This document shows positions 3,108 to 59,443 of a stretch of DNA of 64,000 bases, piece by piece. The stretch spans positions 64,001 to 128,000 of IMG/VR virus record IMGVR_UViG_3300023170_004399; one strand, 5' to 3'. Within the stretch, counting starts at the first letter, position 1. The number at the start of each line of letters is the position of its first letter. The notes below the pieces were generated by a model. That model was not told the origin of the DNA and ran no database searches. It was given only the letters and a program-made list of their open reading frames with translations. Source of the DNA: a virus (Duplodnaviria; Caudoviricetes). A program made the translations under genes and the position numbers.

Positions 3108-3157
3108 TTGTATAATGAATTATACTGTTAATAGCGGTATAATTCATTATCTTTTTT
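3108..3157. promoter_or_regulatory. 14-bp perfect inverted repeat carrying TATAAT boxes, followed by a T-tract (operator, promoter or terminator)
   Basis: ATAATGAATTATAC (3112-3125) and GTATAATTCATTAT (3137-3150) with an 11-nt spacer, then CTTTTTT and the AGGAG RBS of the next gene. Confidence 0.55.
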
Positions 3158-6860: not shown

Positions 6861-7084
6861 GTGATGATGTAAAAGCAATAGAAGATAATATAAAAGCTAG
6901 AGAAATAGTACAAACAGTTTTAGATTATGGTGTTAACAATAATCAAATATTACAGATAATATATCTGTTTGCTTTGGAGTTAGAAGACCAACAGCATGTA
7001 AAAACAATAACAAAAATAATAAACGATATAAAATCAAACAAAAACGTTGCTAGTCAAAAATCTAGCATTTTATTAGGAGAGTAA
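6857..7084 (+). CDS. hypothetical protein
   Basis: ATGA overlap with the upstream stop; 75 aa, helical-looking. Confidence 0.7.
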   Translation: MSDDVKAIEDNIKAREIVQTVLDYGVNNNQILQIIYLFALELEDQQHVKTITKIINDIKSNKNVASQKSSILLGE

Positions 7085-7085
7085 T

Positions 7086-7286
7086 ATGTCCATGGATATT
7101 AAAGAAAAATGGGAAGCAATTAAAGTTATCGTAGAGTCGCTTGAACTTGACGTACAAAAGAATGCTAATGGCAACGCGTCTGCTGGTGTTCGTGCACGTA
7201 AAGGTCTACGTCTTTTGAAAAAAGAAGCTGCTGAGCTAGTAAAAATTACTATTGAAGCAGAAAAAGCTTCAAAAGACAAAAAATAA
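7086..7286 (+). CDS. histone H1-like (Hc1 family) small basic protein
   Basis: 'NGNASAGVRARKGLRLLK' matches the family signature GNKAAGTRARK; AGGAG RBS at about 7076. Confidence 0.75.
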   Translation: MSMDIKEKWEAIKVIVESLELDVQKNANGNASAGVRARKGLRLLKKEAAELVKITIEAEKASKDKK

Positions 7287-7314: not shown

Positions 7315-7337
7315 AAAAGGCGGTTTTACCGCCTTTT
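7315..7337. terminator. bidirectional intrinsic terminator
   Basis: AAAAGGCGGT-TTT-ACCGCCTTTT hairpin with an A-run on the left and a T-run on the right, between convergent genes (7086-7286 + and 7370-7624 -). Confidence 0.85.
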
Positions 7338-7369
7338 GTTTATTTTGGATATAATTATTGTATGATAAT

Positions 7370-7624
7370 TTACCTAATAAATTTTTTAAATATTTGAGTT
7401 AGTTTTTTAATTGCACTTTTTTCAATTTGACAGATGCGCATTCTAGTAAGTCCATGTAAATCCCCTATTTCCTGTAAAGTACGAGGCCCATCTTTGGCCG
7501 CAACTATTGCGCAATTTAATTTACTACTACAATTTAACCAGTTCCTGCACTTTTTGTTTTCGCAGGCCTTGTTTAATGTTTCGCATGAAGAAAAACATGT
7601 TTTTTGTTCTCTATTGTGACTCAT
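7370..7624 (-). CDS. Cys-rich protein with a stand-alone sigma-70 region-4 HTH
   Basis: C-terminal 'GPRTLQEIGDLHGLTRMRICQIEKSAIKKL' is the sigma region 4 signature (TLxEIG..xGxTRERIRQIExxALxKL). Start reassigned to ATG 7624, which has a GGAG RBS (the track starts at 7672). Confidence 0.8.
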   Translation of the reverse strand: MSHNREQKTCFSSCETLNKACENKKCRNWLNCSSKLNCAIVAAKDGPRTLQEIGDLHGLTRMRICQIEKSAIKKLTQIFKKFIR

Positions 7625-7690
7625 TACAACTCCATAAAAATAATATATTATATTATACAATAAACCTAACATATTTCTAAAGGTAAAAAA

Positions 7691-8989
7691 ATGACAAGAA
7701 AAACTTTTATATTAGATACATCAGTAATGTTGTATGACAAGCAATCAATCCACGCTTTTATTGGGAACAATATTGTTTTGCCATTAGTTGTTTTAGAAGA
7801 GTTAGATAAGTTTAAAGACAGAAGAGGCCTAGTTGGTGATAATGCTAGATATGTAAATAGATTTTTAGATCAAATGAGACATGCACCCAAAAATGGCACA
7901 GGATGGAAGATAGATGAAGTGCATGATATTTGGTTTAAGTTTGAAACAGACCCAAAAATACATGATCAAGTACCTGAAGGTTTTGACTATGGTTATAATG
8001 ACAATGTTATAATTGGTTGTGCTTTGTTTCTAAAACTGCATAGTGCAACCAATGATGTTATAAGAGTTATCACTAAAGATATTAATCTTCGTGTAAAATG
8101 CGATGCCGTAGGTGTTGATGTTGCTGATTACGTAAAAGATAGAATTTCAACTGACGTCGATACATTTAAAGGCTTTAATAGCATAGACTTGACATGTGAG
8201 CAAATAGATCAGTTTTATAAACAAGGTCATATTGAAACAGAACACAAGCTAAACGAAAACCATTTTGTCGTTGGCACATCATCTCAAAACTCAATGTTAG
8301 GCATATATAAAAAAGGCCAAGTAAATAGATTAAAATACAAAATGGATTCTTTAATACAAGTTGAACCAAGAAATTCTGAACAAAGATTTGCTATAGAAGC
8401 CCTGCTTGATCCTCAAATACCACTAGTGACATTAACTGGGTTAGCTGGTTCTGGTAAAACATTTTTAGCATTGATGGCTGGTATGTTAGGCGTAAAAGAT
8501 GGAAAATCGGGTGATTATGAAAGATTGTTAGTTACGAGAACATTACAACCAGTAGGAAAAGATTTAGGTTATTTGCCTGGTTCTATGGATGAAAAAATGG
8601 CCCCATGGATGATGCCTATCTTAGATAACGTACGAGTTGCTTTTAAAGACACTAGTTTTTTTAAAATGCAGATGGCTTCTGGTGTTATTGAGGTTGCTCC
8701 TATTCCTTACATACGTGGTAGAACATTTAATAATAGTTTCATGATAGTAGATGAAGCACAGAACGCTACAATACATGAATTAAAGACTATCATCACACGG
8801 ATGGGTACAGGTTCTAAAATAGTATTACTGGGTGACATCGACCAAATCGACACACCATATATTGATCGACAAAGTTCTGGTTTGAGCATAGTTATAGATA
8901 AATTTCAAGATAGCACACTTGCCGCGCACGTTAATTTGTCAAAAGGGCAAAGGTCTGATTTGGCCAGTGTAGCTTCAACAATATTGTAG
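7691..8989 (+). CDS. phoH: PhoH family protein with N-terminal PIN domain
   Basis: PIN 'FILDTSVMLYD...VLEELDKFK...NDNVII...ITKDINLRVK'; PhoH Walker A 'GLAGSGKT', 'YLPG', 'RGRTF', 'DEAQN', 'GDIDQID'. Confidence 0.95.
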   Translation: MTRKTFILDTSVMLYDKQSIHAFIGNNIVLPLVVLEELDKFKDRRGLVGDNARYVNRFLDQMRHAPKNGTGWKIDEVHDIWFKFETDPKIHDQVPEGFDYGYNDNVIIGCALFLKLHSATNDVIRVITKDINLRVKCDAVGVDVADYVKDRISTDVDTFKGFNSIDLTCEQIDQFYKQGHIETEHKLNENHFVVGTSSQNSMLGIYKKGQVNRLKYKMDSLIQVEPRNSEQRFAIEALLDPQIPLVTLTGLAGSGKTFLALMAGMLGVKDGKSGDYERLLVTRTLQPVGKDLGYLPGSMDEKMAPWMMPILDNVRVAFKDTSFFKMQMASGVIEVAPIPYIRGRTFNNSFMIVDEAQNATIHELKTIITRMGTGSKIVLLGDIDQIDTPYIDRQSSGLSIVIDKFQDSTLAAHVNLSKGQRSDLASVASTIL

Positions 8990-31183: not shown

Positions 31184-31476
31184 AAATATTAATTTGTTTA
31201 GGTTTAGTTTTATTTATAGTATGTTGCGTTTCACTATACTATAATTACAAATTTGCTATGGCATTATTAAAAATTGAAGATTCTTTGACGGAATGTCTGG
31301 ATATATTAGATGAACGTTACGCTAGCGTTGCAAAAATATTAGAGACACCACTGTTTTATGATTCACCGCAAATAAGACAAGTTGTTATAGATATGCAAAA
31401 GTGTCAAGAGAGTATTTTAATGGTAGCAAACGTTATATCAAAGGTAGAAAATGTAAATGAAGAAGAGAGTAATTAA
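31177..31476 (+). CDS. membrane-anchored hypothetical protein
   Basis: N-terminal hydrophobic helix; 'LFYDSPQIRQV'. Confidence 0.7.
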   Translation: MLEILICLGLVLFIVCCVSLYYNYKFAMALLKIEDSLTECLDILDERYASVAKILETPLFYDSPQIRQVVIDMQKCQESILMVANVISKVENVNEEESN

Positions 31477-32179
31477 AAGAAAGCCTTCCGGAAAAAAACC
31501 ATATTTTACGAAGGAAACACAAGCTAATATTAAACTTTTTATTGAATCAGAAGATTTTGATGAAAGAGAAAAGATATATAGAGAAAAAATAAAACCAGCA
31601 TTAGAAACTTTAGTTGAAAATTTAATATTTGTATATGGGTTTCATAAGCAACACGCAGACATACAAGCTTTAAAACATAATTGTGTTATAAATTTATTTG
31701 AATCTTTGCATAAATTTGATCACGATAGAAATAAAAATGCATTTTCTTATTTTAATGTTGTTGCAAAAAACTGGTTAATTATATACAGTCGAAAAGTTAA
31801 TAAAATAAAAAGAAAGACAGTTTATTTAGCAGATCAAGCTAGCTTCTCGGCTGGTGATATGTTGACTCTTTCGGAGTATCACAAAGCTGGTCCAGCAATG
31901 CTCCCAATTGAAAAAGAAGAAAAACAACAAGCTTTAATGGATATGTTAGGTTATCTTAAAACACAGTGTAAGTCTGATAATGAAAATCGATGCATGGATG
32001 CTATTATAAAAATATTCAGAGATAATTCTAATTTAGATTATTTAAATAAAAGAGCAATATTTGTTTATGTTAGAGAATTAAGTGGTCTTAATTCAAAACA
32101 ACTATCTGTCTGCATGTCTAATATTAGAAAGTATTATAGAAAAGTAGTTGGTCCGGATAAGGAGTTTGATATATTATGA
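31457..32179 (+). CDS. phage sigma-factor-like transcription protein (gp55-like)
   Basis: 'YFTKETQANI', and region-2-like 'LKHNCVINLFESLHKFD..RNKNAFSYFNVVAKNWL' (compare gp55/sigma 'A..KFD.....NAFAYFT'); C-terminal helix pair 'RELSGLNSKQLS'. Confidence 0.65.
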   Translation: MKKRVIKRKPSGKKPYFTKETQANIKLFIESEDFDEREKIYREKIKPALETLVENLIFVYGFHKQHADIQALKHNCVINLFESLHKFDHDRNKNAFSYFNVVAKNWLIIYSRKVNKIKRKTVYLADQASFSAGDMLTLSEYHKAGPAMLPIEKEEKQQALMDMLGYLKTQCKSDNENRCMDAIIKIFRDNSNLDYLNKRAIFVYVRELSGLNSKQLSVCMSNIRKYYRKVVGPDKEFDIL

Positions 32180-56826: not shown

Positions 56827-56838
56827 TTGTATAATTAG
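56827..56838 (+). promoter_or_regulatory. putative promoter -10 box TTGTATAATTA
   Basis: TTGTATAAT recurs at 3108, 7652-7660 (minus strand) and 59432, and GTATAATTA at 34224, each in an intergenic gap upstream of a start codon. Confidence 0.5.
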
Positions 56839-59431: not shown

Positions 59432-59443
59432 TTGTATAATTAA
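59432..59443 (+). promoter_or_regulatory. putative promoter -10 box TTGTATAATTA
   Basis: Identical 11-mer to the one at 56827; about 25 nt upstream of ATG 59465. Confidence 0.5.

Follow-up and report, generated by a model that had tools for sequence, protein, structure and literature searches.

We found that the 64,000-nucleotide stretch analyzed here (the window; positions 64,001 to 128,000 of IMG/VR record IMGVR_UViG_3300023170_004399), which originates from an uncultured marine jumbo phage, encodes an 84-residue protein (P0001) in which only region 4.2, the promoter -35-reading domain of a bacterial sigma factor, was detected, together with four invariant cysteines. Phages carrying this version of the protein (clade A) use an unusual -35 box (TGTAnA) and thus, the protein may redirect the RNA polymerase of the host to phage promoters.

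To explore whether the open reading frame is a real gene, we inspected its sequence, its expression signals and the coding capacity of both strands. The reading frame translates without a stop and is preceded by its own promoter and ribosome-binding site and followed by a bidirectional terminator (Table 1). Every other minus-strand ORF of 90 aa or more lies inside a longer plus-strand ORF, and a 68-aa minus-strand ORF at 7073-7279 overlaps the Pfam-supported Hc1-like plus-strand gene. The gene is therefore the only credible minus-strand gene in 64 kb. Pfam placed residues 41-75 on positions 14-48 of the 50-position profile PF04545 (Sigma70_r4; E=1.6e-9, 37.6 bits against a cut-off of 24.1), and no region 2 or 3 was found, so that the protein is not a complete sigma factor. 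These data confirm the observation made in the original prediction, which had described a stand-alone sigma region 4 protein with a six-Cys N-terminal domain. Cysteines are present at positions 10, 14, 21, 26, 32 and 38 as predicted, but also at position 65, which had not been mentioned. The TTGTATAAT box of the gene occurs in nine exact copies in the window, four of which lie in the small intergenic fraction and face the downstream gene. When one mismatch was allowed, 73 matches were counted against 68.7 expected, and thus only the exact intergenic copies are informative.

Table 1. Location of the sequence features in the window
Feature	Position	Strand	Observation
CDS of the stand-alone Cys4 + sigma region 4.2 protein	7370..7624	-	84 aa; stop codon at 7370-7372, ATG at 7622-7624
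Codons for residues 10-38 (Cys module)	7511..7597	-	C-x10-C-x4-C-[RK]-x-W-x8-N-C
Codons for residues 41-75 (sigma-70 region 4.2 helix-turn-helix)	7400..7504	-	Recognition helix T60-K74 (7403-7447) reads TRMRICQIEK and is invariant at the positions given in the text
Ribosome-binding site	7630..7633	-	GGAG, 5 nt before the ATG
TTGTATAAT box	7652..7660	-	TATAAT -10 at 7652-7657; the same nonamer precedes three other genes (3108, 56827, 59432, all +)
-35-like hexamer	7676..7681	-	TTTAGA, 18 nt upstream of TATAAT
Bidirectional intrinsic terminator	7315..7337	.	10-bp stem with 5 GC, T-runs on both strands; shared with the convergent Hc1-like gene; only sub-threshold, hairpin-driven Rfam hits, none reaching a gathering score
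PIN + PhoH fusion (PhoH2 type), divergent neighbor	7691..8989	+	Pfam PIN_4 and PhoH; start codon 66 nt from the sigma-r4 start codon
Hc1-like histone H1-type protein, convergent neighbor	7086..7286	+	Pfam PF07432, E=2.2e-8
gp55-like phage sigma	31457..32179	+	240 aa; partner proposed in the original prediction
TTGTATGAT, possible promoter	7358..7366	+	Just after the terminator; would read antisense through the sigma-r4 gene into PIN-PhoH; weak lead only, no equivalent extended -10 site in the related genome G005

To find out whether related proteins are fragments of full sigma genes, an outcome that had been named in advance as one that would speak against the prediction, we searched several sequence collections. 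A search of 5.8 billion proteins returned 217 metagenome homologues of 73-111 aa, all carrying PF04545, but no homologue among proteins of 148-2000 aa. An exhaustive HMMER search with the family profile yielded 171 representative clusters (50% identity) at E<=1e-10. The 150 best representatives have 37-172 aa, mostly match the whole profile including the Cys part, and none is fused. Thus, the homologues are never fragments of full sigma genes. IMG/VR holds at least 275 clade-A loci, many of them on contigs of 200-340 kb. In contrast, tblastn searches of 50,697 phage records with P0001 and with a member of a sister clade (see below) found nothing, so that there is no annotated relative among cultured phages. 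When one genome for each of 185,579 prokaryotic species was searched, the only full-length matches were phage-like MAG contigs binned into unrelated taxa, which gives no host, and hits in Syntrophus and Scytonema are ordinary sigma genes. In this collection, the motif RMRICQIE was not found outside phage-like MAG contigs, so the helix is not a copy of an odd host sigma. NCBIfam and PHROGs recognized only the C-terminal end of ordinary sigma models, far below their cut-offs, and literature searches did not retrieve a description of this family.

Conservation of the cysteines had also been put forward beforehand as a criterion, and we therefore counted the residues in each column over 121 homologues. 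Here, we found that C10, C21, C26, N37, C38, L50, Q51, I53, G54, R61, M62, R63, C65, Q66, E68, K69 and K74 are invariant. Position 14 is His in 80 sequences, Cys in 11 and other residues in 30, and position 32 is Cys in only 77. R27 is Arg or Lys in 120 sequences and W29 is aromatic in 120. Thus, the six-Cys domain is a four-Cys core with the spacing C-x10-C-x4-C-x11-C, and in this form the conservation criterion was fulfilled. The AF2 model (mean pLDDT 84; 85-89 over residues 11-40) involves a helix at residues 10-17, a loop region and three HTH helices. Distances between the cysteines were not measured in this model, so that convergence of the four cysteines in space was not verified, and although four potential ligands are present in all 121 sequences, this leaves undecided whether the protein binds zinc or an Fe-S cluster. 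Redox gating, including any redox role of Cys65, was not examined. Structural searches did not identify a counterpart of the Cys module: Foldseek recognized only the HTH, with E>=0.77, VIA-align in its wide mode gave a best Z of 2.6, and a search of the ESM Atlas with residues 1-44 scored at most 0.83, all of which is uninformative. The analogy to WhiB-like (Wbl) Fe-S proteins, on which the original prediction had drawn, fails on motif, since neither the C-Xn-C-X2-C-X5-C spacing nor the G[VI]WGG turn is present, and there was no Pfam WhiB hit at E<=0.1.

Next, we mapped the protein onto sigma-70. The family profile hits region 4 of SigA/RpoD chains in the PDB (best E=1.7e-7), and its positions 47-78 align without a gap to E. 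coli RpoD 570-601, so that residue n corresponds to sigma-70 residue n+523. All top Foldseek hits are region 4 chains of primary sigma factors with 33-59% identity over 30-45 residues. R61, R63, Q66 and K74 are the equivalents of R584, R586, Q589 and K597, whereas M62 replaces E585 and C65 replaces R588 in 121 of 121 sequences. E585 and R588 determine recognition of the G:C pair at -33, and R584 that of -31 (PMC2613000). R586 and Q589 are also DNA contacts. Thus, the base-contact residues of a TTGACA reader are not all conserved, and the fixed changes affect exactly the two residues that read the third base of this box. Since the DNA-facing residues are the most conserved feature of the family, a DNA-reading function is favored over a pure protein decoy. 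A decoy or competitor would occupy the beta-flap tip or soak up a host or phage factor that targets sigma region 4 (an Rsd- or AsiA-type binder, or a defence sensor), and would shut off -35-dependent host promoters while extended -10 phage promoters carry on. In line with this possibility, the phage lineage has promoters that look -35-independent (TTGTATAAT in the window and TGGTATAAT in the related genome G005), and many family members end in a hydrophobic-acidic tail that recalls the C-terminus of sigma-70. However, the invariant positions do not form a flap-facing surface, region 4.1, the main flap-binding part of sigma, is replaced by the Cys module, the tail is variable, and a free domain would presumably have to outcompete a tethered one. 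Binding to the beta-flap was not assayed and no complex was modeled, but we consider this scenario improbable.

To explore the genomic context, we compared related loci. In 79 of 79 loci, a PIN-PhoH homologue is divergent and upstream with a median gap of 100 nt, and in 68 of 68 loci an Hc1-like gene is convergent. The genomes of this lineage are almost unidirectional (353 of 383 called ORFs on one strand in the clade-A genome G005, 334 of 366 in the clade-A genome G001), and the gene is among the few that face the other way. The protein may be an ordinary local regulator, a small HTH repressor that binds the 30-170-nt divergent region to control its own gene and/or the PIN-PhoH2 gene, possibly as antitoxin-like partner of this RNase-helicase. 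Mycobacterial PIN-PhoH2 is reported to have a small partner gene (10.1101/2020.01.15.907535), and the conserved TGTA[CA]A box lies in the gap next to the PhoH ribosome-binding site. However, the whole surrounding block (PrkA/SpoVR, chaperonin-like, Hc1-like, PhoH) is syntenic, so that the adjacency may simply be inherited gene order. The gene is divergent and not co-transcribed, sister-clade genes have no PhoH within 6 kb, and these data do not agree with a type II antitoxin of PIN-PhoH2. Moreover, the box keeps a fixed distance to the sigma-r4 -10 element and start codon but a variable distance to the PhoH start, no inverted-repeat operator is evident, and the same box occurs at 8-32 other promoters per genome. 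Taken together, a purely local role appears unlikely, although somewhat less so than the decoy scenario.

When we analyzed the short divergent region, TGTACA was present in 18 of 62 non-redundant loci and TGTAAA in 18 of 62, against 1.1 and 1.8 expected. In 33 of 67 related loci, TGTA[CA]A holds the place of the -35 element, and in 23 of these 33 it is located exactly 16 nt upstream of a TAnnnT hexamer. The box lies 37-61 nt (one outlier at 78) from the sigma-r4 start codon but at a variable distance (0-59 nt) from the PhoH start, and it is the -35-type element of the promoter of this gene. The promoter of the window itself does not carry this box (Table 1).

To explore whether the box defines a promoter class of the lineage, we counted TGTA[ACG]A-N15-18-TAnnnT sites lying 35-130 nt before a gene start in four clade-A genomes (GC 36-46%), for which the background of such positions is 10-12%. 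Such positions were found for 22 of 54 sites in G005 (p=4e-8), 32 of 57 in G001 (p=2e-16), 8 of 24 in G003 (p=2e-3) and 18 of 43 in G009 (p=2e-7), whereas the corresponding values for TTGACn were 1 of 17, 0 of 7, 3 of 19 and 2 of 24. In an unbiased ranking, TGTAAA (G005, G001, G009) or GTGTAA (G003) was the top hexamer at this position apart from A-runs, and control hexamers of similar composition stayed at background. The spacer peaks sharply at 16 nt in three genomes and at 18 nt in G005. G005 (293 kb, terminal repeats) has 16 near-identical promoters of the form TTCTGTAAAAAA-N13-TGGTATAAT, in which the extended -10 element could work without any -35 reader, and G001 has at least eight of the form TGTGTAGAA-N14-TTAAATTA. 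The genes driven by the G001 class include a MoxR-type ATPase, a RecA/DnaB-like ATPase and unknown genes. In the window, there was no TGTAnA enrichment (10 sites against 14 expected, none placed well), and this is explained by the window being the structural/glycan region, outside of which the sites concentrate.

The exhaustive search also found proteins with the same Cys module but other recognition helices. One large sister clade reads VSFVRVKQIE, has at least 553 IMG/VR loci, and its genes are translationally coupled to a conserved upstream gene rather than divergent. A rare clade keeps the RpoD helix and, almost unchanged, the RpoD tail (TRERIRQIEAKAL...), but since its single IMG/VR locus sits in a bacterial-looking context, it could not be used for a covariation test. 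In the VSFVRVKQIE clade, the promoter boxes are reversed: 22 of 49 TTGACn (p=8e-9) and 0 of 26 TGTAnA sites in the sister-clade genome G011, and 5 of 17 and 2 of 21, respectively, in the sister-clade genome G012. Across 76 clade-A loci, 41 of 240 TGTAnA sites (p=6e-12) and 12 of 279 TTGACn sites lie near gene starts, whereas across 69 sister-clade loci the values are 1 of 91 and 79 of 205 (p=3e-38). This is a clean association between protein clade and -35 box, but it amounts to two lineages and could reflect different hosts whose own sigma reads these boxes. The sister helix also differs from sigma-70, yet its phages use canonical TTGAC boxes, so that the relation between helix and box is not simple.

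The original prediction had proposed that the protein supplies a metal- or redox-controlled region 4 in trans to the 240-aa gp55-like protein, which would contribute region 2, or that it competes with host sigma for the beta-flap. The 240-aa protein has no Pfam hit itself, and its sequence profile alone finds no PDB sigma. Its model (pLDDT 81) is best matched by T4 gp55 (7d7c_F, Z 11.6, rmsd 3.8, 116 of 137 residues), phrog_234, the PHROG late-sigma family, is hit in 5 of 6 relatives (best E=3.6e-6), and Sigma70_r2 is hit weakly in 25 of 42 relatives but Sigma70_r4 in none. Thus, the protein is gp55-like. Full-length sigma factors align up to about residue 238 of the model at high rmsd, which indicates a further C-terminal helical domain of uncertain nature that global alignments lay on sigma domain 4, and hhalign found no relation of the C-terminus to the sigma-r4 family (probability 1.6%). 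Co-occurrence of both genes had been suggested as a check, and we found them, one copy each, in 10 of 10 large clade-A contigs; the gp55-like gene was also present in 2 of 5 sister-clade contigs, including the one estimated complete. These data leave the idea of a stand-alone region 4 that acts with RNA polymerase intact, but the interpretation as a whole was only partly supported. A split sigma, in which the protein docks on the beta-flap as T4 gp33 does but also reads DNA, is not refuted. However, co-occurrence is what any two core genes of a lineage would show, the genes lie 24 kb apart, and the sigma-r4 gene has an early-type -35/-10 promoter. Moreover, the TGTAnA promoters precede ATPase, helicase-like and small unknown genes and are depleted in the structural region where the late sigma would act, and T4-type late promoters need no -35 element. 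We therefore regard the split-sigma scenario as improbable.

Our preferred explanation, to which we adhere only tentatively, is that the gene encodes an early phage transcription factor that is a free-standing copy of region 4.2 of a sigma-70-family factor. In this view, the four invariant cysteines plus a conserved Trp and Arg replace region 4.1 and most likely hold a structural metal, a priori Zn, so that the small domain folds without the rest of sigma. The recognition helix would bind -35-type DNA with changed specificity, and its targets would be the TGTAnA boxes located 16 nt upstream of the -10 elements in the early/middle promoters of this lineage, including its own promoter in half of the relatives. 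A single HTH monomer on a 6-bp box is unlikely to act alone, and the most likely mode is therefore action on the host RNA polymerase holoenzyme, taking the place of or competing with host sigma region 4, a domain-substitution form of sigma appropriation. As a substitute for region 4 the protein would be an activator, but when competing with host region 4 it would be a repressor. The gene, the family, its invariant residues, their mapping to sigma-70, the synteny and the promoter-box statistics rest on our analyses, whereas binding of metal and DNA, the target box, the contact with RNA polymerase and the sign of the effect are deduced and were not assayed. If the factor is needed for TGTAnA promoters, its own TGTAnA promoter poses a start-up problem. 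A more far-reaching and rather unlikely scenario, which our data do not exclude, is that the protein docks on the beta-flap in place of the host sigma's own region 4 and reads TGTAnA as a phage-private -35 box, with Met62/Cys65 in place of the Glu/Arg that read the G of TTGACA. An unmodified host sigma-70 holoenzyme would thereby be re-aimed at 8-32 phage promoters per genome, and related phage clades would carry versions with other recognition helices, forming a family of swappable -35 readers.

Several known systems share single features with this protein. Region 4.2 of primary (group 1) sigma factors (RpoD/SigA) is the closest relative, but here it stands alone, without regions 1-3 and 4.1, and carries an N-terminal Cys4 module with no known fold as well as the fixed E585M and R588C changes. 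T4 sigma appropriation by AsiA and MotA at middle promoters is a possible functional parallel, entirely inferred, in which an early phage factor makes host holoenzyme use promoters with a sigma-70 -10 element and a phage-specific box in place of TTGACA. There is no sequence or fold relation, and AsiA remodels host region 4 while MotA reads the box, whereas here one protein would itself be a region 4. T4 gp33, the beta-flap-binding co-activator of gp55, is also a small phage protein proposed to occupy the place of sigma region 4, but it is not a region 4 homologue, does not read DNA and showed no similarity here. Bacillus subtilis SigO-RsoA is a precedent for regions 2 and 4 on separate polypeptides; it is cellular, has no Cys module and was not compared by sequence. 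Wbl proteins are small four-Cys proteins that act at sigma region 4, but they bind region 4 and are not region 4 themselves, and their complexes top the Foldseek list only because their sigma-A chain matches. Phage late activators of the RinA/ArpU/LtrC type are small proteins with sigma-region-4-like HTHs that switch on gene classes, but they are longer and have no Cys module, and there was no PHROG or Pfam match to them, the only PHROG hit being the region 4 end of a full sigma family.

Phages redirect host RNA polymerase by binding or remodeling sigma region 4 (AsiA, G1 ORF67, P23-45 gp39), by bringing whole sigma factors or by replacing region 4 with an unrelated flap binder (gp33). A phage that brings only a re-specified region 4 would be a fourth way, and it would also give a natural example of changing -35 specificity through the two residues that geneticists identified in E. 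coli. If the protein only represses its own promoter, it is an ordinary regulator with an unusual ancestry. The family is large, always stand-alone, confined to uncultured marine and freshwater phages of about 120-340 kb and has no name in Pfam, NCBIfam or PHROGs beyond region 4. Its role therefore bears on how an abundant, uncultured phage lineage times its genes.

When we inspected the complete 293-kb phage genome G005, we found sixteen near-identical promoters of the form TTCTGTAAAAAA-N13-TGGTATAAT-AnTACTATAAGG (loci L146-L160). These promoters concentrate at 7-47 kb and at 245-280 kb of the genome, and they constitute a very regular early-type promoter class with a non-canonical upstream box. 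In the window, exact copies of TTGTATAAT are located about 25-55 nt before four gene starts, but these four sites do not share a -35 box. This sequence is probably the promoter -10 signature of this part of the genome, although which sigma factor reads it is unknown. A subgroup of the clade-A loci (L017, L020, L023, L034, L049, L065, L076) lacks TGTA[CA]A in the divergent region and shares the arrangement ...TTAAACAA...GATTTTGTAGTGTTTG instead. This arrangement resembles the Bacteroidota -7 motif TAnnTTTG, and it may be a hint that part of the lineage infects Bacteroidota.

The PhoH protein encoded in the window is a PIN + PhoH fusion (PhoH2 type, an RNA helicase-RNase in mycobacteria) and not the usual stand-alone phage PhoH ATPase. 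It is conserved in 79 of 80 related loci. The gene of a 66-aa Hc1-like histone H1-type protein (Pfam E=2.2e-8) is convergent with the sigma-r4 gene in 68/68 loci. H1/Hc1-like proteins, PhoH, and a sigma factor have been reported as common genes of a large aquatic phage lineage, the "moraphages" (PMC12619734), but it was not established whether this is the lineage studied here. The coordinates of these features are summarized in the following table.

Coordinates of promoter sites, neighboring genes, and related open reading frames
Feature	Sequence	Position	Strand
Promoters of the regular early-type class (examples)	G005	13448, 15922, 29590, 41051, 245689, 280408	
Exact TTGTATAAT	window	3108-3116	+
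Exact TTGTATAAT	window	56827-56835	+
Exact TTGTATAAT	window	59432-59440	+
Exact TTGTATAAT	window	7652-7660	-
PIN + PhoH fusion	window	7691-8989	+
Hc1-like histone H1-type protein	window	7086-7286	+
ORF upstream of the sister-clade Cys4-sigma-r4 gene	L259	5660-6004	+
Protein with the Cys module and an unchanged RpoD recognition helix	L176	10004-10279	+
C-terminus of the gp55-like sigma (31457-32179)	window	32152-32176	

In the sister clade, the Cys4-sigma-r4 gene overlaps (ATG within ...TTATG) the end of a conserved gene of about 114 aa, the C-terminus of which reads ...IFD[LI]IE[QK]E[HF]PDL. This arrangement is seen at locus L259, and the equivalent upstream ORF is present in about 60 sister-clade loci (L256-L335). 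The product of this gene, which was not compared with any family library, could be a dedicated partner protein. At another locus (L176), we observed a 91-aa protein that carries the same Cys module but an unchanged RpoD recognition helix and C-terminal tail. Its gene lies next to an HU-like gene and a PAS/HD-GYP gene in DNA that looks bacterial. A cellular version of the family may exist. For another member of this clade (protein P0333), the closest NCBIfam model is the sigma of the MZA anti-phage system.

The gp55-like sigma of the window terminates with ...GPDKEFDIL and this ending is conserved in close relatives. It recalls the short hydrophobic C-terminal tails by which T4 gp55 and gp33 bind the clamp, and this would fit sliding-clamp-activated late transcription.
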